Virus record (IMG/VR): IMGVR_UViG_3300044620_001243 | Length of the DNA: 64,000 nt | Direction: 5' to 3' (one strand) | Source: a virus | Shown: in pieces, positions 3,735 through 63,320 of the stretch | Numbering within the stretch: position 1 is the first letter of the stretch | Layout of the letters: each line of letters begins with the position of its first letter | Notes under the pieces: generated by a model | Told to the model about the DNA's origin: nothing | The model's database searches: none | Seen by the model: only the letters and a program-made list of their open reading frames with translations | Translations under genes and position numbers: made by a program

Positions 3735-3919
3735 ATATACGTTTAATAACAAAAATGAAAGAGATACAGACTTTTTATAGAGAAATAGGAAGTTTTTGTT
3801 ACGAATTGTATACGTTGATGTACGCATTCGCATTAAAAGAAAATATACCTTACGGCTTAGATATTCATCTGAAACTCATGGATGTAGTAGAAGAAGAATA
3901 TGCGGGAATTTGATTTTTT

Positions 3920-9356: not shown

Positions 9357-9788
9357 ATGATAAAACTTATAAATGTATTGAAAGAAATCGATGAACCACA
9401 AGAAATTGACCAAAAAGATTTGTTTAGATTTTTTGAAAAAGTATTTTATGAAATAAAAGATAAAAGACATGGTTTACCAACGTCAGACCAATTGGCCCAA
9501 TTAACACCTGAAGCAAAATCTTATTTGCTGACTGTGTTAGATACAGTTAAGATGTATGACAGCAAATATCAAAGACTAGGAAAATTCCTACACCCAGACA
9601 ACAACAAAGAACTTACATCAGAAGACGAGTTAATATCGTATCTTTCTTCTATGTACTTTGCTGGTTTTGATAGACCTTCAATATTGGGTAAACCAAATAA
9701 ACCTATTCAAGGGTTGAAATTACCCCAACCACCATCTCAAGAAGTGGTGAACAGTATAATCAATTTCGCTAAGGCTAGAAAAACTTAA
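9357..9788 (+). CDS. hypothetical protein
   Basis: 143-aa ORF. Confidence 0.35.
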   Translation: MIKLINVLKEIDEPQEIDQKDLFRFFEKVFYEIKDKRHGLPTSDQLAQLTPEAKSYLLTVLDTVKMYDSKYQRLGKFLHPDNNKELTSEDELISYLSSMYFAGFDRPSILGKPNKPIQGLKLPQPPSQEVVNSIINFAKARKT

Positions 9789-10139
9789 ATAAATTTGGAT
9801 ATGATACTTTTTTTTATTATATTATCAATGACAATACCTCTTTCCATTCTTTGGGTGCGAGGTATTGATTACATGAAAGAAAATCATCCTGACTATTGGG
9901 GTGAGAATTTATTTGATGAAGAAGATAAAATACACATAAGTTAATTTTTATGAAAGAAACTAATTATAAATTCAAAGTAGGCGATAAGGCTTACAAACCA
10001 AAAGGATATAAATTTCCTTGTACAATTGTATCCGTTTTTGAAACAACTTCCTCTCAAGTAAGGGTGGTAGCGGAAATGGATGAATACGGATTGTTACATA
10101 TTTTTAACGAAGAACAGTTAGAACATTACACTCAATAAA

Positions 10140-32067: not shown

Positions 32068-33363
32068 ATGTCTAAATACAAACCCATAGGGATTACACCC
32101 AAAGAAAAAGCAGACCAGTTGTTAGAATCTGTTATGTTTAGTCTAAATAAACAATTTGACCCAAACACAGGTGAATATCAACCAATCCCAACCAACCCGC
32201 ATTATAAAGAATGCGCATTAGCAATTGTAAACGAAATCTTTGAGTTTATTAAAAAAGATGATTTAGATTCCGAAACGGCGTATTGGGCAAATCATCCTAT
32301 TTCTAATTTTTGGGTTGAAGTTGAACGTGAAATTAAAAAACAAATGAATTTGATTCAAATTTTAGAGAATTATTTTCAAAAAGGTTGGTTGATTAAACAA
32401 ACTCACCCAACTTTACCTCTGACAATTTGGAATTATTCCCAAACAACCCAATACGAGGGTAGGTGGGATGAAATAACCCTCATGTGTAGAGGTTTGGTTA
32501 CAGATGATGATGGAAATATTGTTGCCAGACCTTTCAAGAAGTTTTTCAATTTAGAAGAGGGAAAACACACACCAACCTCAGAATTCGAAGTATATGAAAA
32601 GATGGATGGTTCTTTGGGTATTTTCTTTTATTATCAGGAGCAACCCGTTTTTGCATCCAGAGGTTCTTTCACTTCCGACCAAGCCATCAAAGGAAGAACT
32701 CTTTTAGATAAGTATAATTGGCAAGGTGGAACTTACCCTGGCTACACTTACCTATTTGAGATTCTTTACCCGGAAAATCGGATAGTAGTAAATTACGGTG
32801 ATTTAGAAGAACTGGTTGTTTTGGGTGTGCTCAATACCCAAACTGGAGAAGAGTGTGATTTTTCAGAAATGAAAAACGAAGGATTCGTTCTAGTTAAAAA
32901 ATACGATGGAGTTAAAGACTATACCAAATTAAAGAGTATGATTTTTAACAATCAAGAAGGGTTTGTTGTAAAGTTTTCAAACGGAAATAGGGTAAAAATC
33001 AAAGGAGAAGAATACTTGCGTCTTCATAAGATTATGACTGAAGTTTCGACTAAATCTGTTTGGGAGATTTTATCCAATGGTGATAATATGGAAGAGATAC
33101 TCAGAGATGTTCCTGATGAATTTTTTGATAAGGTCAAGGAATATGAAACAGAACTTGTTTCTAAATTTGATGATATAAAGAATGAATACACTTGGATTTA
33201 TAAAGTTTTAGAAAGAAACGAGGAAATTTCAGAAAATAGAGCTATCTTTGCCCAATACGCTAAAAGATACAAACACCCATCCATTTTATTTGGTCTATTG
33301 GACGGTAAAAATATAGACCCTATGATTTGGAAAATAATACAACCCGAATATAAAAAACTATGA
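32068..33363 (+). CDS. ATP-dependent RNA ligase (nucleotidyltransferase motif I KxDGS)
   Basis: EVYEKMDGSLGIFF is the ligase adenylation motif I. Its size and its position next to the phosphatase and kinase genes suggest a T4 RnlA-like tRNA repair ligase. Confidence 0.55.
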   Translation: MSKYKPIGITPKEKADQLLESVMFSLNKQFDPNTGEYQPIPTNPHYKECALAIVNEIFEFIKKDDLDSETAYWANHPISNFWVEVEREIKKQMNLIQILENYFQKGWLIKQTHPTLPLTIWNYSQTTQYEGRWDEITLMCRGLVTDDDGNIVARPFKKFFNLEEGKHTPTSEFEVYEKMDGSLGIFFYYQEQPVFASRGSFTSDQAIKGRTLLDKYNWQGGTYPGYTYLFEILYPENRIVVNYGDLEELVVLGVLNTQTGEECDFSEMKNEGFVLVKKYDGVKDYTKLKSMIFNNQEGFVVKFSNGNRVKIKGEEYLRLHKIMTEVSTKSVWEILSNGDNMEEILRDVPDEFFDKVKEYETELVSKFDDIKNEYTWIYKVLERNEEISENRAIFAQYAKRYKHPSILFGLLDGKNIDPMIWKIIQPEYKKL

Positions 33364-40333: not shown

Positions 40334-41393
40334 GAAAATGAAAGATTTGATATACGTTAAAGACCCAAAACTAAGTGCCATACCGATTACAAAATTAATG
40401 AAATTAGTTTACGAGTTTATCCCAATAGAACAAAGAGAAGAATTTTTATCTGAATATAAAAAATTATATATGGAATCGTTACAAGACTTACAAAAATCAT
40501 ATGAATATGGACTTAATGAAAAAATACATAACGAATAAAAAAATAGTTATTATTGTTTCAGTAATAATTCTTCAAATACTCTTCGGTTTTGACCCCAAAT
40601 TCACATTTATAAATCTCATCTGGTTACTTTTTTAATATGAACAACAAATTAATATCCACATCAAATTATCTCTATTTGGTAGACGATTCAATAATAAACA
40701 ATGGTGATTATGTTTTTAACATTGAGGCTAAAATTGTGTGTGATTATAATTCTGATTTTAATGTAAACAAATCTTCTCTAAAAAAGATAATCGCCCATTT
40801 ACCATTGAAAGAAGATTCGTTTTATTTAAAAAAATTAAAATTACTTCCAAAATTAGATATGAACCTAATGCCAAATAAATTTATCTGTGAAACAGATTCA
40901 TCAGGTAAACCAGTAATTAAGGTTGACGAAAAAAATAGACCTATTTTGGTTGGAAAATACGAATATTGATGAAAAATTTATTATACGGCATTTTCTTAAT
41001 GGTTATTGCACAAATTTTAACTTTTTATCAAATACAAGGTCCACTTAAAATTGCGTTTTTTAAAAACAATTATTGGTTTGCCATTTTGATGGGTATTCCT
41101 TTATCGATTTTATATGTGGAGTCAGTTAAACAAATTGTAACATATTATGATGGTTTAGTGTGGCCAGGTAGATTAATTGGTTTTGGTGTTGGTGTGATTG
41201 TCTTTGGGATTTTTTCCTATTATGTGTTTAATGAAACATTAACCACAAAAACATTATTGTGTCTTTTACTGTCTTTAGGGATTATAGCTATTCAACTTTT
41301 TTGGAAATGATAGAATATTCAGATGTGATTGTCGATTTACATATGATATATAATTTATTTAATGAAAAATTTGGTTTTTTGAATTTTATTGCG

Positions 41394-41401
41394 TATATTT
41401 G
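41394..41401 (+). promoter_or_regulatory. -7 box TATATTTG
   Basis: 19 nt upstream of the lipoprotein minigene ATG. Confidence 0.4.
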
Positions 41402-41420: not shown

Positions 41421-41579
41421 ATGAAAAACCTATTTATGTTTTTGGTTCTTTGTGGTCTAACAATGACCTCATGTTCCAATGGTGGTGAAAACTCGAGCGA
41501 GACTCCTGTTGAGGTACCACAAGATTCAGTATCCGTCGATACCGTCCCAGCGTATACGGATACTGTTCGTCCACTTTAA
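41421..41579 (+). CDS. small lipoprotein minigene (52 aa)
   Basis: MKNLFMFLVLCGLTMTSC… lipobox. Not in the ORF track because it is shorter than 60 aa. Preceded by a TATATTTG box. Confidence 0.35.
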   Translation: MKNLFMFLVLCGLTMTSCSNGGENSSETPVEVPQDSVSVDTVPAYTDTVRPL

Positions 41580-41587
41580 GTGGAATA

Positions 41588-41725
41588 GTCAGATGGCGAA
41601 ATGTAGCCGCTATTTGGGTAAAACAGTTTAACACGAGACGCGAACCTCACACAAAGCCTGATAATAACCAAATGAAAGTGCGAAGTACAGTAACACTTAT
41701 ACGGGTTCGACTCCCGTTCTGACTG
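41588..41725 (+). tRNA. diverged tRNA-like unit (acceptor AGTCAGA/TCTGACT, T-arm ACGGGTTCGACTCCCGT; non-canonical core)
   Basis: Same architecture as the 44.8-48.2 kb family but diverged in sequence. No canonical anticodon arm was found. Confidence 0.4.
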
Positions 41726-44411: not shown

Positions 44412-44603
44412 GAAATACCACGGTTTATTGGATAAAATTATGCAACCAAAAGAATCAAAAACAAATACCCATTTTCAATTAAGTTTGATAAAATCTCTTT
44501 TAAGGATATTAGGATGTATTTATCTATTCTTTGGGTGTACAAGTATGTTTGTAATTATTTTCATATTTGCAGAAATTCTTGGAATTTTAGAAGAAATTTT
44601 GTA

Positions 44604-44627
44604 GTTTGAATTTTTTTTCGTATATTT
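44604..44627 (+). promoter_or_regulatory. promoter box TTTG…CGTATATTTG upstream of tRNA-Met
   Basis: An exact TAnnTTTG -7 consensus. Confidence 0.45.
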
Positions 44628-44653
44628 GTATTCTGAATATGAAAATAAACAAT

Positions 44654-44727
44654 AGCGGGGTGGTGGCAGATGGTAGCCCGCCAGGCTCATAACCTGGAGG
44701 TCGTAGGTTCGAGTCCTACCCCCGCAA
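44654..44727 (+). tRNA. tRNA-Met (CAT); 1:72 A:A mismatch, could be an initiator or a tRNA-Ile2-type
   Basis: Anticodon stem CCAGG/CCTGG with loop CTCATAA. T-arm GTAGG-TTCGAGT-CCTAC. Acceptor AGCGGGG/CCCCGCA. Promoter box TATATTTG at 44620. Confidence 0.8.
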
Positions 44728-44791
44728 CCGTATAGTTTTTGTTCTTTGACATCTTGGGAATTAAAAGTAAAAGTCGAGAGACTTAAAAATT

Positions 44792-44901
44792 AGTCAGGTG
44801 GCGGAATTGGTAGACGCAAGTGAGAATAGTAATTGCGCTGATGTAGCGGCAGATGCAGTAAGTTATTATTCATACAGGTTCGAGTCCTGTCCTGACTACC
44901 A
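44792..44901 (+). tRNA. tRNA-like unit 1 (Leu-type scaffold, 56-nt variable core, CCA encoded)
   Basis: 5' AGTCAGGTGGCGGAATTGGTAGACGC … ACAGGTTCGAGTCCTGTCCTGACTACCA 3'. Acceptor strands are complementary. No canonical anticodon arm was found. Confidence 0.5.
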
Positions 44902-44992
44902 AAGAAACAAGTAAAACGCAAACGCACAGTCCCTTGATGCATCAGGTGAGGCGCACACTGTATACTGGATGACCTCTGTTTCTTTTTTAATC
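44902..44992 (+). repeat. 91-nt spacer, identical copy at 45370-45460
   Basis: Exact duplicate following the two CCA-encoding units 1 and 3. It contains an AGAAACA…TGTTTCT helix followed by a T-run (terminator-like). Confidence 0.7.
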
Positions 44993-45101
44993 AGTCAGGT
45001 GGCGGAATTGGATAGACGCATTGAGGAATCTAAACTTGGTAGCATTTGTTAGATTTAATAGTAATCCTCCTTCCTTACAGGTTCGACTCCTGTCCTGACT
45101 A
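44993..45101 (+). tRNA. tRNA-like unit 2 (variable core 57 nt)
   Basis: Same conserved flanks. The core has a GAGGA…TCCTC stem enclosing 37 nt. Confidence 0.5.
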
Positions 45102-45267
45102 CGACAGTTAGCAGATAATACTTGGTAGTTCTTGTAACGTCTGACTATGCGTGAGGTGGTTTTATAACTTTCCACCAGCTGGTCCAAAACTAAAAGTTAA
45201 TACAGGTTTAATAACGGGGTGAAGGAAAGTCTAACTAACAAGTACTTCACTACCTACTGTAAAAATT

Positions 45268-45369
45268 AGTCAGGTGACGAAATTGGTAGACGTGCCACGA
45301 ATAAAACTAAGTGGTGGAGAAACAGCTTTCAGGCACTCCATACAGGTTCGAGTCCTGTCCTGACTACCA
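45268..45369 (+). tRNA. tRNA-like unit 3 (CCA encoded; compensatory D-stem A10:T25)
   Basis: D-stem ACG/CGT versus GCG/CGC in the other units. Followed by the same 91-nt spacer as unit 1. Confidence 0.5.
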
Positions 45370-45460
45370 AAGAAACAAGTAAAACGCAAACGCACAGTCC
45401 CTTGATGCATCAGGTGAGGCGCACACTGTATACTGGATGACCTCTGTTTCTTTTTTAATC

Positions 45461-45558
45461 AGTCAGGTGGCGGAATGGTAGACGCACTGGACAGGCGATG
45501 CATTTAAAACAGAAATAAGCCCAGTCGGTACTTACAGGTTCGAATCCTGTCCTGACTA
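45461..45558 (+). tRNA. tRNA-like unit 4
   Basis: Conserved flanks. The core has an ACTGG…CCAGT stem with a 30-nt loop. Confidence 0.5.
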
Positions 45559-45926
45559 CAAATCTTAGGAGTAATTAACCTAAGACTGAGAGGTTCGAAA
45601 CTCTCGATTGGCTATGGTGTAATGGGCACAGAGAAACGGAGTACGAAAGGGGTTACGGGAATTTTCCCGCAAACATCAGAAACGGGACTCAGGATTATGG
45701 TTCGAATCCATATTAGTCAACAAGCCGTCTTTTTTTCTTGTCCGCCGTGGACGTGGATTGTTGAGACGTAAAAGTAACAATCGATTGATTAGAGAACGGT
45801 AGGATACAGGTTCACTAGACGAAGGTAGAAGTTTTTTTTTGATAGATGGGTTTGAGTTCTTTATAACAACAAACCAACTATAATTCAGTAGGGACAAATG
45901 GGAGCGGCTTACTCCAGTCCCGAAAT

Positions 45927-46085
45927 AGTCAGGTGGCGGAATTGGTAGACGCTATGAAATCATGTTTTAAGATTGAACGGGTAGGCAGACGTAACATATA
46001 GGTAAAAGAGTGTTATCGCCGAATACACTTATAAGGGTCCTATGAAAAAACTTCAATCATACAGGTTCAAGTCCTGTCCTGACTA
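45927..46085 (+). tRNA. tRNA-like unit 5 (110-nt core)
   Basis: Conserved flanks with T-arm ACAGGTTCAAGTCCTGT. The very long core suggests an insertion or intron. Confidence 0.45.
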
Positions 46086-46328
46086 CACGTTCCGAAACAG
46101 ACAACGGATAGTTCCACTATGAACGATGAGAAACAGGGTGATGTCCTGTATTAGTTATCGCCTCCCGAATGCGGTCGGGATAGGTTGACCACCTAAACAT
46201 CAGCAATGTGAACGGTCTATTTCTAACTCACCTACGTTTGTAAGACAACATAGAAGTGACGAGACGGGAAACTCGTCGTGAGGACATCCAAGACACCTGT
46301 AAGTTGGATAAATTAGGGTGTTATTTTT

Positions 46329-46451
46329 AGTCAGGTGTGGGTAAAAATGCGCTAACTGGAAACCCACTGAAAGCGAAAGCAAAGTCGAGGTCTAAATGCG
46401 CACTATGGCCGAGGTAATGGCGAGATACAGGTTCAAGTCCTGTCCTGACTA
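46329..46451 (+). tRNA. tRNA-like unit 6 (altered D region)
   Basis: Acceptor AGTCAGG/CCTGACT and T-arm conserved. The D region is replaced by TGGG…CCCA. Confidence 0.4.
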
Positions 46452-46596
46452 CAAAGACAATGGTTTTCCCCATTCAACGGATGTCGACAATCCAGAATGG
46501 AATCGGAATTCAGCACCCTCAGCCGAGGCGCCTCGTAAAACTACGATTAAGCTGTTAAGATTGGAGCGAGACGGGTACTCCATCATTGTCTTATTT

Positions 46597-46668
46597 GGTC
46601 GGTTCATCTAGAGGTTAGGATACAAGATTTTCATTCTTGTCACATGGGTTCGATTCCCATACCGACTA
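46597..46668 (+). tRNA. tRNA-Glu (TTC)
   Basis: Clean cloverleaf. Acceptor GGTCGGT/ACCGACT, D GGAT-loop-ATCT, anticodon stem CAAGA/TCTTG with loop TTTTCAT, T-arm ATGGG-TTCGATT-CCCAT. 72 nt. Confidence 0.8.
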
Positions 46669-46833
46669 CCTTGGAGGTATAGGGGTAAACCCTTGAGGCG
46701 AAGTACAAGCCATAGTCACTGAACTTAAACTGACCTCCAACCAAATTAGAAGTGTCGCAATACGCGTTTCAATCTAATTGATAGACGTATCAATGAAGAT
46801 GTTCGAGGGTGAAAATCCCAAGCTTCTAATCCT

Positions 46834-46938
46834 CCATTCTTAGTGTTATGTGGTTAAAACACGTTAACTCTTACATCGCCTGATTAGCGCTAATCCGAAT
46901 GTAAGACGAGTAAGTTGGTTCGAATCCAACAGAATGGA
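46834..46938 (+). tRNA. tRNA-like gene with distinct acceptor (CCATTCT/AGAATGG), canonical D and T arms, and a 26-nt insertion inside a TCTTAC/GTAAGA helix (possible intron-containing tRNA)
   Basis: D-arm GTGT-loop-ACAC and T-arm GTTGG-TTCGAAT-CCAAC. The core is too long for a type I tRNA and the anticodon is unresolved. Confidence 0.45.
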
Positions 46939-47216
46939 CAATGAGTAAGAGATACTCAGAGTCTTTGGTCTAAGACTTAAACAATAGACTCGCAGAATGT
47001 CTACGGCGTGAGTGGGACATCATGGGAACAAAGAAGAGTCACACACCTTCTCCCAGTAGTGTTGACAGGTTTTTATGTGGTAAGACACTAATGAAAAAGA
47101 CTCGTTCTATGGGGTACTTATCTGGAGTATCAAACAAGTGTGAGTGATATGGTTCTCGAACAGACAGAGAAACCCGTTAAAATCTACCCGTCTGGAATCT
47201 CAGGATGGGGAAACAT

Positions 47217-47319
47217 AGTCAGGTGGCGGAGTGGGCTAACGCTAACTTGGAAGAGTCTGAGGAGTGGTAACCAAGTACCTATACTCTGATGACCGCAGGT
47301 TCGAATCCTGTCCTGACTA
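47217..47319 (+). tRNA. tRNA-like unit 7
   Basis: Conserved flanks (D-loop variant AGTGGGCTAA, T-stem GCAGG). The core has a CTTGG…CCAAG stem. Confidence 0.45.
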
Positions 47320-47337
47320 CAAAAATAAATTAAAATT

Positions 47338-47598
47338 ATGTTTATAGAAAGATTTTTTAACCCCTATGTGTCATCTCACGAAAGGGTATTATATGAGAAT
47401 AAAGAAGCAATTGAACATTGTTTGAAATATCATACATGGATTAGACATTATTCATTTGAAGGTGATGAATATATCAAAAATGTTAATGGTAAATTAGTTT
47501 GGAATGATGGTAGTAAAGTTGATAAAAGAAAATTACCTAAAAAAGGAAAAGGATGGGGCAGATATTCAAGTGAACTTTATAATTTGTGTTCTTTTTAA
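47338..47598 (+). CDS. small hypothetical protein embedded in tRNA island
   Basis: 86-aa ORF that exactly fills the gap between units 7 and 8. Confidence 0.35.
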   Translation: MFIERFFNPYVSSHERVLYENKEAIEHCLKYHTWIRHYSFEGDEYIKNVNGKLVWNDGSKVDKRKLPKKGKGWGRYSSELYNLCSF

Positions 47599-47605
47599 AT
47601 TAAAT

Positions 47606-47751
47606 AGTCAGGTGGCGGAATTGGTTAGACGCTGTAAAAGTAAGATATGGGAATTGTGCACTCGGTAAACCTACGCACAAGGCTTAGATAGTTGTGCAAC
47701 AGCGGAAAGTCTTACAAAACTATCTTACAGGTTCGAATCCTGTCCTGACTG
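47606..47751 (+). tRNA. tRNA-like unit 8 (95-nt core closed by 8-bp GTAAGATA/TATCTTAC helix; discriminator G)
   Basis: Conserved flanks. The self-contained closing helix suggests an inserted element or intron. Confidence 0.45.
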
Positions 47752-47906
47752 CAAAATTAAAGATATGTTTAGAACATTAAATTATATTTGGAAATTGTTT
47801 TGGAAAAGACCTAGTAGAAGAGTATTTTTTATATTTTTTAGAATGCTAAAAACGGAAATTAAGTGTTTAATGTTGACTGGATACTCAACAGATGAATTAC
47901 TAAATT

Positions 47907-48033
47907 AGTCAGGTGGCGGAATTGGTAGACGCACGATTTATTGTTTAACGATGTGGCTCAATGTCCTAATGGATGAGAGAAAATAAACAGAGAAATATAC
48001 CACATACAGGTTCGAATCCTGTCCTGACTACCA
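47907..48033 (+). tRNA. tRNA-like unit 9 (CCA encoded)
   Basis: Conserved flanks with a 73-nt core. Confidence 0.45.
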
Positions 48034-48085
48034 AGTTAACCCACTAAGACTAGAAACGGGTGACACCTCGGAAAGACGAGGACAT

Positions 48086-48170
48086 AGTCAGGTGGCGGAA
48101 TGGATAGACGCGGCCCTATCAGGGGTAGAGGCGAAAGAAACTCATACAGGTTCGAATCCTGTCCTGACTA
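48086..48170 (+). tRNA. tRNA-like unit 10 (85 nt, type-II length)
   Basis: Conserved flanks. The 34-nt core forms CCCT-ATC-AGGG and GAG…CTC minihairpins but no 7-nt anticodon loop. Confidence 0.45.
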
Positions 48171-48278
48171 CACAGTGTTGGCTTCAAGGACCTATTAGGG
48201 AAGTACACTTAAATAAAACAAGAACGGGGAAAACACCGAATCTGCAGATAACGGCGAAGTACCAACGAAAGGTGAAAC

Positions 48279-48352
48279 GACCTCATAGCTTAATTGGTAA
48301 AGCACCTGGCTTTTAACCAGGGGAGTCCAGAGTTCGAGTCTCGGTGGGGTCA
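48279..48352 (+). tRNA. tRNA-Lys (TTT)
   Basis: Acceptor GACCTCA/TGGGGTC, D GCTT-AATTGGTA-AAGC, anticodon stem CCTGG/CCAGG with loop CTTTTAA, T-loop TTCGAGT. Confidence 0.85.
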
Positions 48353-48553
48353 CAAAGGTTGATTGGGGAATGATGGTGACAAAGACTTGAGAGTTTATGC
48401 CGGTCGTTACCATCGGAGTTGGGAGGTATAAACCTAAGCAATGCCAATCGTAAAAGGAGTTGTCCACTCGACCATCTTCTCCTTTCCTTTTTTTTAAAAA
48501 AATTCTTAAAGACACATTTTGGTTTTATCATTTTACTTTTGTATATTTTACAT

Positions 48554-53524: not shown

Positions 53525-54256
53525 ATGGATAAAGATAAATTAAAAAATATCATTACCAGAATTGGTCAAATAAATCCAAAATATGAATTGGAAAATATTC
53601 TGCCTCAATCGCCAAAATTAATTAAATTAATGCCTAAATTAATTCAACTCATGGGTGACCCATTAGAAGATGCTCAATTGGCTGCAGTTAAAAAAGATGG
53701 TTTAACAATCGAATATATCGTTAAAGGTGGAATCACCCCATCAGAAGATGTTCAATTGGCTGCAGTTAACGAAAATGGTTATGCAATCCAATATATCATT
53801 AATGGTGGAATCGTCCCATCAGAAGGTGTTCAATTGGCTGCAGTTAACAAAAAGGGTTATGCAATCTCAAATATCATTAAAGGTGGAATCGTCCCATCAG
53901 AAGATGTTCAATTGGCCGCAGTTAACGAAGAGGGTTATGCAATAGGATATATCATTGATGGTGGAATCGTCCCATCAGAAGGTGTTCAATTGGCCGCAGT
54001 TAATAATAATGGTTATGCAATCCAACATATCATTAATGGTGGAATCGTTCCATCAGAAGGTGTTCAATTGGCCGCAGTTAACAAAAAGGGTTTATCAATC
54101 GAATATATCATTGATGCCGGAATCATTCCATCAGAAGATGTTCAATTTGGAGCAGTTAATTATAATGGTTTATCAATCCAATATATCATTGATGCTGGAA
54201 TCACCCCATCAGAACGTGTAAAAGAACTTGCTCGTTCCAAGGGTGTTCAAATATAA
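53525..54256 (+). CDS. DUF4116-like repeat protein (paralog 1 of 3)
   Basis: N-terminus MDKDKLKNIITRIGQINPKYELENI, then about eight 24-aa repeats (GI(T/V)PSEDVQLAAVNxNGYAIQYII). C-terminus SERVKELARSKGV. Confidence 0.5.
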   Translation: MDKDKLKNIITRIGQINPKYELENILPQSPKLIKLMPKLIQLMGDPLEDAQLAAVKKDGLTIEYIVKGGITPSEDVQLAAVNENGYAIQYIINGGIVPSEGVQLAAVNKKGYAISNIIKGGIVPSEDVQLAAVNEEGYAIGYIIDGGIVPSEGVQLAAVNNNGYAIQHIINGGIVPSEGVQLAAVNKKGLSIEYIIDAGIIPSEDVQFGAVNYNGLSIQYIIDAGITPSERVKELARSKGVQI

Positions 54257-54261
54257 ATAAC

Positions 54262-54897
54262 ATGGATAAAGATAAATTAAAAAATATCATTACCAGAATT
54301 GGTCAAATAAATCCAAAATATGAATTGGAAAATATTCTGCCCCAATCACCAAAATTAATTCAATTCATGGATAATCCATCAGAAGATGTTCAATTGGCCG
54401 CAGTTAAAAAAGATGGTTTAACAATCTATTATATCATTGAAGCCGGAATCGTCCCATCTGAAGATGTTCAATTGGCTGCAGTTAATAATAATGGTTCATC
54501 AATCTATCAAATCATATATGATGCTGGAATCACCCCATCAGAAGATGTTCAATTGGTTGCAGTTAAAAAAGTGGGCGACTTAATCTATGATATCATTAAA
54601 GTCGGAATAACCCCATCAGAAGATGTTCAATTGGCTGCGGTTAATAATAATGGTTCATCAATAGGATATATCATTAACGGTGGAATCACCCCATCAGAAG
54701 ATGTTCAATTGGCCGCTGCTAATCAAAATGGTAGGGTAATCCAATATATCATTAAAGCTGGAATCACCCCATCAGAAGATGTTCAATTGGCCGCAGTTAA
54801 TAATAATGGTTATGCAATCCAACATATCATTAACGCCCGAATCACCCCATCAGAACGTGTAAAAGAACTTGCTCGTTCCAAGGGTGTTAATATATAA
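54262..54897 (+). CDS. DUF4116-like repeat protein (paralog 2)
   Basis: The first 100 or so nt are nearly identical to paralog 1. Same repeat and C-terminal block. Confidence 0.5.
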   Translation: MDKDKLKNIITRIGQINPKYELENILPQSPKLIQFMDNPSEDVQLAAVKKDGLTIYYIIEAGIVPSEDVQLAAVNNNGSSIYQIIYDAGITPSEDVQLVAVKKVGDLIYDIIKVGITPSEDVQLAAVNNNGSSIGYIINGGITPSEDVQLAAANQNGRVIQYIIKAGITPSEDVQLAAVNNNGYAIQHIINARITPSERVKELARSKGVNI

Positions 54898-54902
54898 GTT
54901 AT

Positions 54903-55616
54903 ATGGATAAAGATAAATTAAAAAATATCATTACCAGAATTGGTCAAATAAATCCAAAATATGAATTGGAAAATATTGTGCAGCAAGCGCCACAATTAAT
55001 TCAATTCATGGATAATCCATCTGAAGAAATTCAATTGGCCGCGGTTGAAAAAGATGGTAAATATATAAAAAATATTATTGAAAGTGGAATCAAACCATCA
55101 GAAGATGTTCAATGGACAGCTGTTAATCAAGGTGGTCAGTCACTTTATTTTATCCTTGAAGCCGGAATCGTCCCATCTGAAGATGTTCAGTTGGCAGCGG
55201 TTAGAAGTAGAGGTTCGGCAATCCAATTTATCATTGAAGCTGGAATCATTCCATCAGAAGATGTTCAATGGTTTGCGGTTAACGAAAATGGTTATGTAAT
55301 CCAAGATATCATTGATGCCGGAATCACCCCATCAGAACGTGTTCAATTGGCCACAGTTAATTATAATGGTTTGTTAATCAAATATATCATTGATGTCGGA
55401 ATCACCCCATCAGAACGTGTTCAATTGGCTGCTGTTAATCAAAATGGTTTGTCAATCAAAGATATCATTGAAGCCGGAATCGTCCCATCTGAAGATGTTC
55501 AGTTGACTGCAGTTAGAAGTAGAGGTTCGGCAATCCAATTTATCATTTATAATGGTGGAATCAAACCATCAGAACGTGTAAAAGAACTTGCTCGTTCCAA
55601 GGGTATTAATATATAA
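54903..55616 (+). CDS. DUF4116-like repeat protein (paralog 3)
   Basis: Same N- and C-terminal blocks, with the repeats more diverged. Confidence 0.5.
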   Translation: MDKDKLKNIITRIGQINPKYELENIVQQAPQLIQFMDNPSEEIQLAAVEKDGKYIKNIIESGIKPSEDVQWTAVNQGGQSLYFILEAGIVPSEDVQLAAVRSRGSAIQFIIEAGIIPSEDVQWFAVNENGYVIQDIIDAGITPSERVQLATVNYNGLLIKYIIDVGITPSERVQLAAVNQNGLSIKDIIEAGIVPSEDVQLTAVRSRGSAIQFIIYNGGIKPSERVKELARSKGINI

Positions 55617-55621
55617 ATAAC

Positions 55622-56194
55622 ATGGAAAAAAATCTAAATGAAGAGATTTCAAGAATAAAATCAATAATCAATTTTATGAATGAAAATGAATTGCCCAAAA
55701 ATTCTGGAGACTTAATAAGGATGTTACCTGAAAAGTTAAAAGAATTATTTTTCAATCAATGGAAAGCAAAACAAAACCCAAAATGGCACCCCGAAGGTAA
55801 CACATTGAAACATATTCTTGTTGTAATTAAAAGGGCTTATCATTATTATCCTGATGACCCCAATATGATTATGGCGGCGTTGTTTCATGATTTGGGGAAA
55901 ATTGATACATACAACATTAACCCAAAAACGGGGGAACCAACTGCGTATGGTCATGAGAACAAGTCAGTGCAATATGTGGAAGAATTCAAAGATTGGATTC
56001 AGAGTTTTGAGGGAACGAACGTGGAAGAGATTAAATATTTGGTTAAAAACCATATGAAGGTAAAACCATCCACATGGGACTCAATGAGGGATATTAAGAA
56101 AGAACCGATACAATCACACCCCGCATTTGATAAATTAATGGGTTTTACAAGTAAATTGGATGGTGGGGGGATTAATTTGGAAAAAAATATTTAA
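55622..56194 (+). CDS. HD-domain phosphohydrolase (CCA-enzyme C-terminal-domain-like 2',3'-cyclic phosphodiesterase)
   Basis: KWHPEGNTLKH…LFHDLGK matches the KWHPE…H…HDxGK pattern of the bacterial CCA-adding enzyme HD domain. Confidence 0.5.
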   Translation: MEKNLNEEISRIKSIINFMNENELPKNSGDLIRMLPEKLKELFFNQWKAKQNPKWHPEGNTLKHILVVIKRAYHYYPDDPNMIMAALFHDLGKIDTYNINPKTGEPTAYGHENKSVQYVEEFKDWIQSFEGTNVEEIKYLVKNHMKVKPSTWDSMRDIKKEPIQSHPAFDKLMGFTSKLDGGGINLEKNI

Positions 56195-56830: not shown

Positions 56831-57448
56831 ATGCAAAAAGTTATTTTCTTGGATATTGATGGGGTAATGAACTCACATATTTTCTATGAACAAAGGCATA
56901 GAAAAAGATGGTTGAAATGGAGAACTTATTATTTTTTGATTAGAAGATTTTTGGGGATTAAATCCAAATCCGTGAGTCTTGCTAACCACAAAACACCCAA
57001 ATCCCATTGCACATACCAACACCAATTTAAAAGATTAAAAGAAGAGACTTGTCAGCAAAAATGGAAATGGCTTGCTAATTTCTGCAACGAGACTGGAACT
57101 AAAATTTGTGTATCATCTGTGTGGAGATTTCATTTTGGAAATGAAGAATCGGTTATACCCCTGTGGTGGGAACGAGCACTGATTGATTTGGGTTTCAACG
57201 AAGGAACATTTGTTGGTATCACCGACAGATTGGGAATGAGAGGAGAAGAAATCAAGGATTGGCTTCAAAAAAATCAGGAAGTTCAGGAATATGCAATTTT
57301 AGATGATGACTCTGATATGCTACCTGAACAGATGGATAAATTTTATCATTGTGATGGATATTTTGGTCTTTCTCCCAATCACTTATATCGTATCCAAAGA
57401 GCCTTCTCGGGTAAAAGTAAATATGGACATTTGAATAAAACCGTATAA
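56831..57448 (+). CDS. HAD-like hydrolase
   Basis: VIFLDIDGVMN (motif I) and ILDDDSD (motif IV-like). Confidence 0.45.
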   Translation: MQKVIFLDIDGVMNSHIFYEQRHRKRWLKWRTYYFLIRRFLGIKSKSVSLANHKTPKSHCTYQHQFKRLKEETCQQKWKWLANFCNETGTKICVSSVWRFHFGNEESVIPLWWERALIDLGFNEGTFVGITDRLGMRGEEIKDWLQKNQEVQEYAILDDDSDMLPEQMDKFYHCDGYFGLSPNHLYRIQRAFSGKSKYGHLNKTV

Positions 57449-61015: not shown

Positions 61016-61222
61016 ATGAAAAACAAAGTTTGGAACAAAACAGTTATTGCAACTGAAGAACAAAACGTAAGCATTTATCCGACAGATGAGTTTGATGGCA
61101 TTATAGTTGAAACAAAAGAGTTGGACGATAAAACATTAAATGGTAAGTTGTATCTTAACAAAGATGAAATGGAACTGTTGATTCAGAAAATGGTGGAAAT
61201 GATGAATTACGTAAAAAGTTAA
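61016..61222 (+). CDS. small hypothetical protein (leader AAAACAAAACAAATG)
   Basis: 68 aa. Preceded by a degenerate tRNA 3'-half remnant (60978-61003) and the conserved leader. Confidence 0.35.
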   Translation: MKNKVWNKTVIATEEQNVSIYPTDEFDGIIVETKELDDKTLNGKLYLNKDEMELLIQKMVEMMNYVKS

Positions 61223-61412
61223 TCGAATCCTGACTGCAAATCAAATCAACTAAAAACAAAACAAATGAAAAATAAGTTAAAAACAATTTGGCATGATTTT
61301 TGGACTGACCCCCTATACTACATTGTAATTATGTCGTATATTGGTTTGCTTTTAATTATGTTAATAGTTAGTGTGGCTTGGTTTATCCAACCTTTAATAA
61401 AATAACAAAACA

Positions 61413-61501
61413 GTCAGGTGGTGGAATTGGTTAGACCGTCCCCTCCCTTAAGTGGAAGGGGGAGACCGAAAGGTATACAGGTTCGAATCCTGTCCTGACT
61501 A
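61413..61501 (+). tRNA. tRNA-like unit a (89 nt; D-stem shifted with compensatory changes)
   Basis: GGTGG/CCGT D-arm variant. The core folds best as a CTCCCTT/AAGGGGG helix with an AAGTGG loop rather than as an anticodon arm. An alternative reading as tRNA-Leu (CUUAAGU loop) would need a mismatch. Confidence 0.45.
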
Positions 61502-61685
61502 CTAAAAATTAAAGAATTATGAAAATAAAAGTACACTTATTAAGTCAATCTAAACCGATTGAATATGAGGATGTGAAAAACGCATACACAAAAAGCGGTT
61601 TGTATTGTGTCTATCTAAAAAACAATCAAGTACACAAATACCCTTTGTGTAATGTATTTAGAATTGAAGAAGATTATTAAAACAT

Positions 61686-61768
61686 AGTCAGGTGGCGAAA
61701 TTGGATAGACGCTAGGGAAACCTTCCCGAGAATGAAAGTTCATATAGGTTCGAGTCCTGTCCTGACAA
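61686..61768 (+). tRNA. tRNA-like unit b (83 nt; A1:A72 mismatch)
   Basis: 3' acceptor CCTGACA. The core has a GGGAA-ACC-TTCCC minihairpin. Confidence 0.4.
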
Positions 61769-61784
61769 CTAAAAATTAAAGAAT

Positions 61785-61967
61785 ATGGAATGGGTTGAAA
61801 TTAAAAATGGAAAACCAAAAGATGGTAGTTGGGTACTAATTCAAAGTTCTTTGAAGAACGTACCGAAATATGAGGTTTGCTATTATGAAAATGATGAATG
61901 GTACATACCTTCGTATAATGATGTATGTGAAGAGAAACATATTATTAAATGGTCGTACATTGAATAA
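61785..61967 (+). CDS. small hypothetical protein
   Basis: 60 aa, lying between units b and c. Confidence 0.35.
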   Translation: MEWVEIKNGKPKDGSWVLIQSSLKNVPKYEVCYYENDEWYIPSYNDVCEEKHIIKWSYIE

Positions 61968-61973
61968 TCAAAC

Positions 61974-62096
61974 AGTCAGGTGGCGGAATTGGTAGACGTA
62001 TAGAGTAGGGAGTAGCACTCCATTTATGGTAAGGCAAGCAAATAAGACCTAACCCTCTAAGGTAGCACCATACAGGTTCGAATCCTGTCCTGACTA
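61974..62096 (+). tRNA. tRNA-like unit c (123 nt)
   Basis: Conserved flanks (D 3' strand CGT). The core contains GGAGT-AGC-ACTCC. Confidence 0.4.
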
Positions 62097-62115
62097 CAAA
62101 CAAACAAAAAAAAAT

Positions 62116-62322
62116 ATGAGTCAATTTATCAACACAAATCACGCAAACGAAGCGGCAAGAGAAGCCTTTCAGGGTTATAGGAAAGACACAGAAAGAATCA
62201 AACAAATCAGACAGATGTTACAGAATGGTGAATCTGTTAGCAATGAAGATATTCTTTGGTTGTGTCAAAGAGCTCAATCAGGCATACTACAAGAAGAATC
62301 AAGTTGGTATGACCACGGATAA
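62116..62322 (+). CDS. small hypothetical protein
   Basis: 68 aa, after an AAACAAACAAAAAAAAATATG leader. Confidence 0.35.
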   Translation: MSQFINTNHANEAAREAFQGYRKDTERIKQIRQMLQNGESVSNEDILWLCQRAQSGILQEESSWYDHG

Positions 62323-62328
62323 AAATAT

Positions 62329-62435
62329 AGTCAGGTGGCGGAATTGGTAGACGCAATAAGGCATGGAAACATGCGCATCATGACGGATTGGTGATATTAG
62401 CCAAAGTTATACAGGTTCGAATCCTGTCCTGACTA
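62329..62435 (+). tRNA. tRNA-like unit d (107 nt)
   Basis: Conserved flanks. The core contains GCATG-GAAAC-ATGC. Confidence 0.4.
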
Positions 62436-62454
62436 CAATAAAAAAACAAAACAA

Positions 62455-62943
62455 ATGAAACTAAATCAAAACTCACTCTCGGCAAAACTCTATCGTTGGT
62501 TCTATAAAACCGACACAATGCCAACCAACCTATGTCCTTACTTTTGGAAACTGGTCACTGCGGTGATTCTTTCACCTTTGCTTGCAATTCACACCCTACC
62601 CTATGAAATCATCAACTACAAACGTCAGCGTTGGGATACATACAGTGATATGCTCGGAATATCGCTTGTTTGTTGGTGCCTTATCGCTGTTGTTATTTGC
62701 ATGATTTCATCATTGGGTCTTTTCTTTTACATCCCTGATAAGGGTTCATCACTTTGGACAATGATGTCAATCGGTCTTATTTGTTGGGGTACCCTTATCC
62801 TAGTTGGCATTACTTGGGCTATTACTAAAACAGTAGTATACTTAAAATCAAAGAAGAGTGATAATGAAAAGACAGACAACATCATCGTTGAAATGGTGAA
62901 AGCAAAGTATCACAAATACTGCCCTAAAATTGATTGGAAGTAA
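62455..62943 (+). CDS. small integral membrane protein
   Basis: 162 aa with 3-4 TM segments. Leader AAAAACAAAACAAATG. Confidence 0.4.
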   Translation: MKLNQNSLSAKLYRWFYKTDTMPTNLCPYFWKLVTAVILSPLLAIHTLPYEIINYKRQRWDTYSDMLGISLVCWCLIAVVICMISSLGLFFYIPDKGSSLWTMMSIGLICWGTLILVGITWAITKTVVYLKSKKSDNEKTDNIIVEMVKAKYHKYCPKIDWK

Positions 62944-62950
62944 AACAAAT

Positions 62951-63028
62951 AGTCAGGTGGCGGAATGGTAACGCAGCTCGCGGTGTACACAAAGGGGTGA
63001 ATTGCAGGTTCGAATCCTGTCCTGACTA
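62951..63028 (+). tRNA. tRNA-like unit e (78 nt)
   Basis: Conserved flanks (D-loop AATGGTAA, T-stem GCAGG) with a 29-nt core. Confidence 0.4.
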
Positions 63029-63047
63029 CAATAAAAAAACAAAACAA

Positions 63048-63320
63048 ATGAAAAGACTATTTTTATTTCTTCTCAGAAGATACAGCAACACTGAATCACA
63101 ACGAATGGAAATTTACCGTGAGTTGTGGGAAAAAACCAAAGAGGAATATTGGGCACAAACCGCATTTGGAAATGTCTACAATATGAATATTGAGGTTCTA
63201 ATGGCAAATCCATTTTTCGAAAGTAGAGTTAAGTTAGGAGAGGATGAACATTTAAGAATGTTAAAAGCTGGACTATCAGATTCATTTGACGATAGTGTTG
63301 AATATATCCTGAATGGTTGA
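63048..63320 (+). CDS. small hypothetical protein
   Basis: 90 aa starting at ATG 63048 behind the conserved leader. The longer track ORF (62934) would read through the tRNA-like unit. Confidence 0.35.
   Translation: MKRLFLFLLRRYSNTESQRMEIYRELWEKTKEEYWAQTAFGNVYNMNIEVLMANPFFESRVKLGEDEHLRMLKAGLSDSFDDSVEYILNG

Follow-up and report, generated by a model that had tools for sequence, protein, structure and literature searches.

IMG/VR virus record IMGVR_UViG_3300044620_001243, a 64,000-nucleotide (nt) stretch of viral DNA referred to below as the window, carries between positions 44,654 and 48,352 an array of transfer RNA (tRNA)-like genes, and the question that this locus raises is whether these genes decode and, if not, what they are. 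An initial annotation described units with near-identical 5' and 3' segments of tRNA-Leu type around hypervariable cores and offered two explanations: type II tRNAs bearing introns or inserts, which would amount to many isoacceptors, or tRNA-mimic RNAs (perhaps processing elements) riding on a tRNA minihelix. We hold a version of the second as moderately probable: the units would be non-decoding RNAs that are matured like tRNAs, in which the shared tRNA body (the chassis) would act as a processing and stability handle and the insert (the core) would be a selected, exchangeable payload.

The whole window was searched with the 3' scaffold segment (ACAGGTTCGAATCCTGTCCTGACTA) and the 5' scaffold segment (AGTCAGGTGGCGGAATTGGTAGACGC), allowing up to 3 mismatches. 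These gave 15 and 7 matches respectively, all on the + strand, with none expected from shuffled sequences; the other 5' halves deviate from the 5' segment through insertions and deletions in the D-loop. Pairing of 5' and 3' halves yields 16 complete chassis units of 78-159 nt with cores of approximately 27-108 nt. Ten lie at 44.6-48.4 kb (cluster 1), one diverged unit lies at 41587-41725 and five lie at 61412-63028 (within cluster 2). The shared scaffold and variable cores of the initial annotation are borne out, but its count of at least eleven units in the array falls to ten, with six more outside the interval, and its core range of 34-110 nt gives way to the measured one. A structural descriptor that is independent of sequence (T-arm hairpin, 7-base pair [bp] acceptor and D-arm) produced 25 hits on the + strand of the window, none on the - strand and approximately 0.2 per shuffle. 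Besides its chassis units, cluster 1 includes a tRNA-like unit with a different acceptor (46834-46938), which the descriptor added, a tentative second one (45609-45720), and the tRNA-Met(CAT), tRNA-Glu(TTC) and tRNA-Lys(TTT) genes that had been folded into clean cloverleaves, an assignment with which both ARAGORN and Rfam agree. Units and tRNAs cover 1,595 of the 3,700 nt of this cluster, which contains a single open reading frame (ORF) of 86 amino acids (aa). The three encoded CCA sequences reported earlier are likewise present, directly after the units that start at 44792, 45268 and 47907 (at 44899, 45367 and 48031); the first two are accounted for by an identical 94-nt spacer, starting with CCA, that follows both units.

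Relatives were collected by exact-pattern scans of IMG/VR, made separately with the 3' half and the 5' half, and with the structural descriptor. Diverged members are under-sampled by these means; the abundance and diversity given here are lower bounds, and unit counts refer to the matches listed. The chassis was found in at least 240 viral contigs of IMG/VR, and the collection comprises at least 406 unique units from at least 241 sources, with 1-16 units per locus (individual loci are given L numbers below).

As an RNA structure the chassis is conserved, and it retains the tertiary nucleotides of a tRNA. It consists of an acceptor stem (AGUCAGG/CCUGACU), a Leu-type D-arm (GGCGGAAU(U)GGUAGACGC in most units), a T-arm and the discriminator A73 (195/216 units). 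U8, A14/A15, G18G19, the T-loop (U54-A58) and U48 (257/300 units) are kept, and pair 3-70 is U-A in 394/417 units. Covariation in homologues, which the initial annotation had set as a test, is present in both stems: two-sided substitutions preserve pairing in 24/28 cases in the acceptor and in 66/74 cases in the T-stem, compared to 13/26 in slid controls. Either half used as bait recovers a conserved other half (with the 5' half, an (A/G)CAGG/CCUGU T-stem is still seen in 96/110 units). The flanks also resemble those of tRNAs. A C at +1 follows 98% of chassis units and 100% of nearby genuine tRNAs, with trailers CAA or CTA, and a U at -1 precedes 80% and 69% of them respectively, with A at -2 and -4; given this shared signature, we infer that both would be substrates of the same enzymes of 5' and 3' maturation. 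For E. coli LeuRS, anticodon-independent leucine identity resides in A73, the Leu-type D-loop and the tertiary core (A15-U48 and the placement of G18G19). Most chassis units have features to be expected of a LeuRS substrate (A73, Leu-type D-arm, U48), and leucylation of the chassis may occur, given that the anticodon is not read by bacterial LeuRS.

The chassis units are not decoding tRNAs. Scaffold-constrained folds agree with the initial annotation in giving no canonical 5-bp/7-nt anticodon arm in the window units, with the possible and marginal exception of 61412-61501 (Leu-UAA, 4/5 bp). Across loci, an anticodon-arm-like hairpin was found in only 14/197 units, and in minimal units the anticodon arm is closed by a 3-6-nt loop. 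The Rfam tRNA model scores the window units at 33-47 bits, but these scores come from the scaffold halves and the middle of the unit is skipped. ARAGORN makes no call for 144/191 chassis units, whereas 198/221 tRNA-like structures with other acceptors are ordinary tRNAs, which ties the unusual cores to this chassis. A few chassis units are real tRNAs: Lys-UUU (L021 and L056), Ile-UAU (L101) and Leu-UAA (61412 in the window).

Introns do not account for the missing anticodon arms. The intron-aware tRNA search proposed in the initial annotation was run with ARAGORN on 400 real units and on the same units with shuffled cores. Calls were no commoner on the real set (250/400 compared to 236-253/400), nor were "introns" (193 compared to 190-206), whose positions were scattered, and the unphysiological A34 appeared in approximately 35% of the anticodons called in both sets. 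We ruled out intron-bearing tRNAs on the basis of this control. Searches of the window and of 12 unit-rich loci against Rfam 15, also suggested at the outset, found no family other than tRNA, and in the window the E<=1 threshold yielded no match to Intron_gpI. In unit loci, the commonest genuine tRNA (30/192) is an ordinary tRNA-Leu(UAA/UAG) with a different acceptor stem, encoded alongside the units. The first of the two original explanations fails on these three counts, while the second is supported in outline by the tertiary nucleotides, the covariation, the tRNA-type flanks and the punctuation of ORFs described below.

What occupies the place of the anticodon domain is highly diverse. Among the 406 units listed, 97 fall into 38 small core families and 309 have singleton cores, for a total of more than 340 unrelated core types, and no motif common to all cores was found. 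The heptamer TAAGTCC was seen in 10 unrelated cores (e.g., in L090, L145, L160, L203 and L218) where 0.7 are expected, often directly 5' of the T-arm.

The cores are structurally constrained and are conserved across unrelated genomic contexts. They form more stable hairpins than shuffled sequences, with a 3.6-fold excess of GNRA tetraloops (18 compared to approximately 5). When helices were predicted from one family member, double substitutions elsewhere in the family kept the pair in 19/20 cases, compared to 10/36 in slid controls. RNAalifold shows compensatory pairs in three core families, and in one core-family hairpin 3/6 pairs covary around an invariant 9-nt loop. Between homologous units on different contigs (families having been found by core similarity), the median core identity is 0.90 while the 120-nt flanks are at background, and both flanks are unrelated in 62/83 pairs. 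At least 15 other viral contigs carry the payload of unit 44993-45101 with 95-98% identity, in at least 8 unrelated flank contexts; variation among these units lies in the D-loop, T-loop and acceptor, making the chassis more variable than the payload. Similarly, the payload of the unit at 62951 is found again in L136 and L243, where the chassis differs in a compensatory manner (A1-U72 to G1-C72). As a separate observation, the 44993-45101 payload contains a Shine-Dalgarno-like GAGGA that pairs with CCUCC, and it ends in CCUCCUU, the anti-Shine-Dalgarno core of 16S ribosomal RNA; this may be coincidence.

Cores are exchanged as whole cassettes. In a close relative of the window, L014, the window spacers are matched at 89-98% identity and whole units have been lost, gained or replaced, with junctions inside or next to the scaffold segments. 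The core of one unit is replaced while its flanks are 97-100% identical, and one indel consists of a leader, an ORF and a unit core, bounded by scaffold segments. In a synteny test, unit pairs were chosen by the relatedness of their flanks rather than by core similarity, which avoids ascertainment bias. Both flanks are related in 65 pairs (mean 94% identity), and these split into 39 with a core identity of at least 90% and 26 whose cores do not rise above background, leaving no intermediate cases; where only one flank is related, 157/189 cores are at background. This bimodal distribution indicates that cores are kept or swapped whole, without drift.

ORFs resembling GIY-YIG homing endonucleases were observed near unit arrays in 8 loci (including L062 and L096). 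SegB of phage T4 recognizes T-arm DNA (PMC2330249), and GIY-YIG enzymes, which belong to the same family, could by analogy drive recombination at the scaffold repeats. No homing endonuclease was found in the window arrays by Pfam or PHROGs.

The wide spread of the family, the conserved and exchanged cores and the second, ORF-interleaved cluster all go beyond what was initially noted. Among approximately 185,000 species-representative genomes, the 3' half was found in 28 contigs of metagenome-assembled genomes, mostly freshwater Bacteroidota bins, and the isolate bacterial genomes in this set have no chassis. None of the 28 contigs represents a canonical host tRNA, and a copy of host tRNA-Leu or an attP site was ruled out as the source. 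The complete chassis is absent from all 50,697 deposited phage genomes searched, and no account of comparable elements emerged from full-text searches of the literature. We found neither a curated family nor a paper in which inserts that are conserved, exchangeable and hypervariable sit on one common tRNA chassis. Window proteins are similar to those of Bacteroides and Flavobacterium phages. A Bacteroidota-type promoter motif (TTTG-N15-23-TAnnTTTG) occurs at 21 window sites where 9.4 are expected, a number reached by 0/100 shuffles, and these sites are mostly on the + strand upstream of ORFs (e.g., at 3909, 22663, 30565, 41370, 44598 and 48871). This enrichment supports a Bacteroidota host, and phages carrying the chassis probably infect Bacteroidota.

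Table 1. Positions of chassis units, tRNAs and associated features in the window
Feature	Position	Strand	Remarks
Bacteroidota-type promoter motif (TTTG-N-TAnnTTTG)	41370..41401	+	upstream of small ORF and diverged unit
52-aa ORF	41421..41579	+	stop codon 7 nt before chassis unit 41587..41725
Diverged chassis unit, 139 nt	41587..41725	+	compensatory changes: acceptor G7-C66 to A-U, T-stem A51-U63 to G-C
Bacteroidota-type promoter motif	44598..44628	+	immediately upstream of array
Genuine tRNA-Met(CAU)	44654..44729	+	opens array; ARAGORN, Rfam
Chassis unit, 107 nt	44792..44898	+	CCA next
94-nt spacer	44899..44992	+	100% identical to 45367-45460
Chassis unit, 109 nt	44993..45101	+	payload recurrent in at least 15 other viral contigs
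Chassis unit, 99 nt	45268..45366	+	CCA next
Chassis unit, 98 nt	45461..45558	+	30-nt loop closed by 5-bp stem
Tentative tRNA-like unit, acceptor TGGCTA/TAGTCA	45609..45720	+	in L014, core replaced and T-stem change compensatory
Chassis unit, 159 nt	45927..46085	+	longest core, approximately 108 nt
Chassis unit, 123 nt	46329..46451	+	D region atypical
Genuine tRNA-Glu(UUC)	46597..46670	+	ARAGORN, Rfam
tRNA-like unit, acceptor CCATTCT/AGAATGG	46834..46938	+	no canonical anticodon arm; L014 homologue with compensatory T-stem change
Chassis unit, 103 nt	47217..47319	+	identical in L014
86-aa ORF between two units	47338..47598	+	starts 18 nt after one unit, ends 7 nt before the next
Chassis unit, 146 nt	47606..47751	+	discriminator G
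Chassis unit, 124 nt	47907..48030	+	CCA next; core absent from L014
Minimal chassis unit, 85 nt	48086..48170	+	short-loop hairpin and GAAA-type variable arm; ARAGORN Pro(AGG) call forced
Genuine tRNA-Lys(UUU)	48279..48353	+	closes cluster 1; ARAGORN, Rfam
Truncated 3' scaffold remnant TCGAATCCTGACTGCAA	61223..61239	+	directly after ORF 61016-61222
Chassis unit, 90 nt	61412..61501	+	probably a true or ancestral tRNA-Leu(UAA), 4/5-bp anticodon stem; 6 nt after ORF 61265-61405
Chassis unit, 83 nt	61686..61768	+	5 nt after ORF 61519-61680
Chassis unit, 123 nt	61974..62096	+	6 nt after ORF 61785-61967
Chassis unit, 107 nt	62329..62435	+	6 nt after ORF 62116-62322, 19 nt before ORF 62455-62943
Chassis unit, 78 nt	62951..63028	+	7 nt after membrane-protein ORF 62455-62943; payload also in L136 and L243

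Several smaller features of the arrays are listed here for completeness. The duplicated 94-nt spacer has ends that pair with each other (AAAGAAACA...UGUUUCUUU) with a U-run behind them; the z-score of the fold is, however, only -0.5. A free-standing T-arm-like hairpin (GAGAGGTTCGAAACTCTC) stands in the spacer at 45588-45605 and is 100% conserved in L014; extra T-arm-like hairpins also occur inside several cores of other loci (e.g., L132, L133 and L044). The 86-aa ORF at 47338-47598 is absent from L014 and has 75% DNA identity to positions 9604-9849 of a 642-kb uncultured megaphage (LR756502.1; L001), which suggests a horizontally moving small gene. This megaphage was considered as a relative with respect to the chassis and rejected, as the match covers the small ORF only and no scaffold is present there.

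In the reading that we prefer, the chassis would have exchanged the decoding role for another: the anticodon and variable-arm domain would be swapped for one of hundreds of unrelated folded inserts. The array would be transcribed behind the Bacteroidota-type promoter motif, and the precursor would be processed by RNase P of the host and, at its 3' end, by the tRNA-maturation pathway. The product would be CCA-tailed, the chassis serving for processing and stability and perhaps as a leucylation handle, and the insert would be the functional payload. Where units stand between small ORFs, their excision would also punctuate the polycistronic mRNA. More speculatively, payloads might bind or decoy host factors in phage-host conflict, a role suggested by the open repertoire and the rapid turnover of cassettes. 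Taken furthest, the arrays would form a natural, open-ended library of tRNA-scaffolded effector RNAs (aptamers, decoys or inhibitors), each directed against a different host or competitor factor, with payloads swapped between two 25-nt arms; we put this forward as a tentative proposal that is somewhat less probable than not. Such a library would parallel anti-defence gene islands at the level of RNA and would anticipate in nature the engineered tRNA scaffold.

A number of observations weigh against the view of the inserts as selected payloads on a maturation handle. Covariation can be assessed in the core families only, with the 309 singleton cores falling outside. Cores are A-rich, and their gain in stability over shuffles is modest (mean z -0.85). 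The estimates of 62/83 pairs and 0.90 identity carry an ascertainment bias, since the families were found by core similarity. A role for the cores as antisense guides or spacer-like elements was ruled out: no core matches coding regions in 2.15 Mb of phage DNA, and there were no matches in the 50,697 phage genomes. A search for a linked protein partner, by all-vs-all clustering of 2,393 ORFs from approximately 150 loci, found no family in more than 15 of these loci and none tightly linked to units; the top ORF families near units are terminase-like, structural and GIY-YIG proteins. Maturation and stability are deduced from sequence signatures only, and all relatives are metagenome assemblies, in which 25-nt repeats could in principle yield chimeric joins. 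Lastly, as the t-elements of plant mitochondria demonstrate, processing and CCA-tailing of a tRNA-like RNA are compatible with its being an uncharged by-product (PMC1920247; bioRxiv 10.1101/2024.09.09.612099).

These t-elements, whose excision by RNase P and RNase Z sets mRNA ends and which are CCA-tailed, base-modified and uncharged (PMC1920247; bioRxiv 10.1101/2024.09.09.612099), are the documented precedent for an alternative that we consider unlikely, namely that the units serve solely for punctuation, in the manner of mitochondrial tRNA punctuation, and as recombination handles. Cuts at the chassis by RNase P and RNase Z would set the termini of small mRNAs or spacer RNAs nearby, the chassis repeats would provide homology for the shuffling of accessory genes, and the core would merely fold harmlessly. 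The layout of cluster 2 (61016-63100) is regular in this regard: five small ORFs (46-162 aa) alternate strictly with units, the unit beginning 4-7 nt after the stop codon and an A-rich leader (CAAUAAAAAAACAAAACAAAUG) preceding the next ATG, which lies 17-20 nt downstream of the unit. Behind a sixth ORF (61016-61222), a scaffold remnant stands in place of a unit. The 30 nt upstream of a unit contain an ORF stop in 27.8% of cases (with a peak at 5-8 nt), compared to 11.7% for tRNAs (a 2.4-fold difference) and 7.7% for random sites, and ORFs are present on both sides of 12.3% of units, 3.0% of tRNAs and 1.4% of random sites. The flanks shared with true tRNAs and the L014 indel of leader, ORF and core between scaffold segments would be expected as well. 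However, approximately 72% of units have no ORF beside them, and ORFs are nearly absent from cluster 1. Punctuation could be provided by any tRNA, whereas the odd cores go with a single chassis, and long cores are kept in size-constrained genomes. Harmless folding also does not explain why cores retain their sequence, beyond foldability, across unrelated contexts, why stems covary around invariant loops, or why syntenic cores are either conserved or replaced and do not drift.

A second alternative, which we regard as less likely again, makes the chassis itself the effector: a decoy or sponge that titrates a host factor which binds tRNA, for example an anticodon nuclease, a toxin that modifies the acceptor end or some other enzyme of defence. 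The main effect of the insert would be to remove the cleavable anticodon loop and keep the RNA off the ribosome, and the copies, up to 16 per genome, would provide dosage. That the sequence of the chassis, beyond its fold, is highly conserved in at least 240 contigs, with either half left free, is in keeping with such a role, as is the short-loop closure of the anticodon arm in minimal units. The latter is reminiscent of Tenacibaculum phage pT24 (L242; LC168164.1, 192032-192477), in which the anticodon arm of two tRNA-Undet genes is replaced by a closed hairpin and a tRNA-Pro has a 5-nt loop; pT24 is a cultured Bacteroidota jumbo phage, and its analogous closed anticodon arms stand on a chassis different from that of the window units. 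The window also encodes a T4 Rnl1-type RNA ligase (32068-33363), several metallophosphatases, an HD protein and an RNA-repair-type HAD domain. Such a ligase together with repair-type phosphoesterases is the classic counter to anticodon nucleases, and because of their presence a link to a tRNA-cleavage arms race is plausible. With respect to the RNA ligase, phosphatase/kinase pair and HD phosphodiesterase named in the initial annotation, the ligase, phosphatases and HD protein were recovered, while no kinase was identified among the approximately 40 window ORFs scanned. The decoy alternative leaves unexplained the conservation of payload sequences in many contexts and the fact that cores are long and diverse rather than minimal, and the clustering of ORFs from approximately 150 loci revealed no linked defence or anti-defence gene. 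Cores acting as anticodon-arm decoys were rejected too, as there is no general excess of 7-nt U33-type loops (7 compared to approximately 2, a surplus explained by the few real tRNAs).

The ORFs scanned in the window include no aminoacyl-tRNA synthetase or tRNA-processing enzyme. Three tandem paralogous ORFs with DUF4116 repeats were observed at 53525-55616, followed by the HD ORF (55622-56194) and the RNA-repair-type HAD ORF (56831-57448).

Two further alternatives are very improbable. Decoding tRNAs, all charged with leucine and having giant anticodon loops, extra arms or introns of unknown removal pathway, could be argued for from the Leu-type D-arm and A73, the few true tRNAs on the chassis, the intron-permitting ARAGORN calls and the ligase; the reading is effectively refuted by the equal call rate, intron count and share of A34 with shuffled cores, by the scattered "intron" positions, by the lack of a group I signal in cores that are too short for such introns, and by the ordinary tRNA-Leu genes of the same loci. 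Nor are the units credible as decaying tRNA pseudogenes or assembly artefacts, even though their relatives are all metagenomic and tRNAscan-type tools would label such genes pseudo or undetermined: decay would strike scaffold and core alike, but the scaffold is near-invariant and covarying, all window units are on the + strand with tRNA-type flanks, the cores show compensatory change, and the same units are present in contigs of many independent samples.

The phage units would be a variety of tRNA-derived modular non-coding RNA, and their nearest likeness in design is man-made. In the approach of Ponchon and Dardel, a payload RNA is reportedly put in place of the anticodon arm for recombinant RNA expression. 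The engineered tRNA scaffold recruits tRNA processing and protects its payload, and like the chassis it keeps the acceptor, D-arm and T-arm while a structured RNA replaces the anticodon stem-loop. In contrast to these constructs, the phage units are natural and arrayed, carry more than 340 payload types and undergo cassette exchange, and their processing and stability are predicted.

Natural tRNA-like RNAs resemble the units in part. The plant t-elements are also tRNA-derived, non-decoding and located beside ORFs, as in the layout of cluster 2, but they are few, degenerate and lineage-specific relics with no shared chassis or conserved inserts, and most phage units lie away from ORFs. The species I and II RNAs of phage T4 are released from the same precursor transcript as tRNAs. 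These stable RNAs are encoded within the T4 tRNA gene cluster (PMC2330249). They are comparable to chassis units, which stand in tRNA arrays behind a promoter motif, in that they are non-tRNA RNAs in a phage tRNA cluster; the likeness considered here is one of location, and T4 has two single-copy RNAs rather than a family with hypervariable inserts on one chassis. Transfer-messenger RNA (tmRNA) has the same topology, its ends forming a tRNA-like acceptor/T-arm domain with a large insertion at the place of the anticodon arm. It differs in being encoded by one conserved gene per genome and in its G3-U70 alanine identity pair (U3-A70 in the chassis), and the arrayed chassis units are without a conserved tag ORF or pseudoknot set; ARAGORN found no tmRNA in the window.

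YrlA bacterial Y RNAs combine a tRNA-mimicking domain with a protein-binding module and are often located beside RNA-repair genes, sometimes in phages. They too are modular non-coding RNAs with a tRNA-mimicking domain, but the arrangement is permuted: the tRNA-like part lies inside the molecule and the two ends make up the Ro-binding stem, whereas the termini of a chassis unit form the acceptor stem. Rfam gave no Y RNA hit at E<=1 in the window, and the ORFs scanned did not include a Ro/Rsr gene. The PeSLs of T4-type phages are mobile promoter/stem-loop cassettes that shuffle small genes. As with the chassis, short repeated elements flank small accessory ORFs and offer homology for modular exchange among related phages; unlike chassis units, PeSLs are promoter-terminator DNA and RNA hairpins with no tRNA shape and no variable internal payload.

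If the units are indeed non-decoding RNAs with exchangeable payloads, they would represent an extensive class of non-coding RNAs in phages, to which standard tools wrongly give the labels pseudo, undetermined or intron-bearing tRNA. In these lineages, the units would inflate phage tRNA counts as well as arguments from codon usage. The tRNA body would then be a generic display chassis for RNA modules in nature, a design known so far only from engineering. The arrays would be a testable case of cassette exchange at the RNA level, and those interleaved with ORFs would provide a bacterial-virus case of tRNA-type mRNA punctuation. They would also offer hundreds of compact, evolutionarily vetted RNA folds, the partners of which may be Bacteroidota defence or translation factors.

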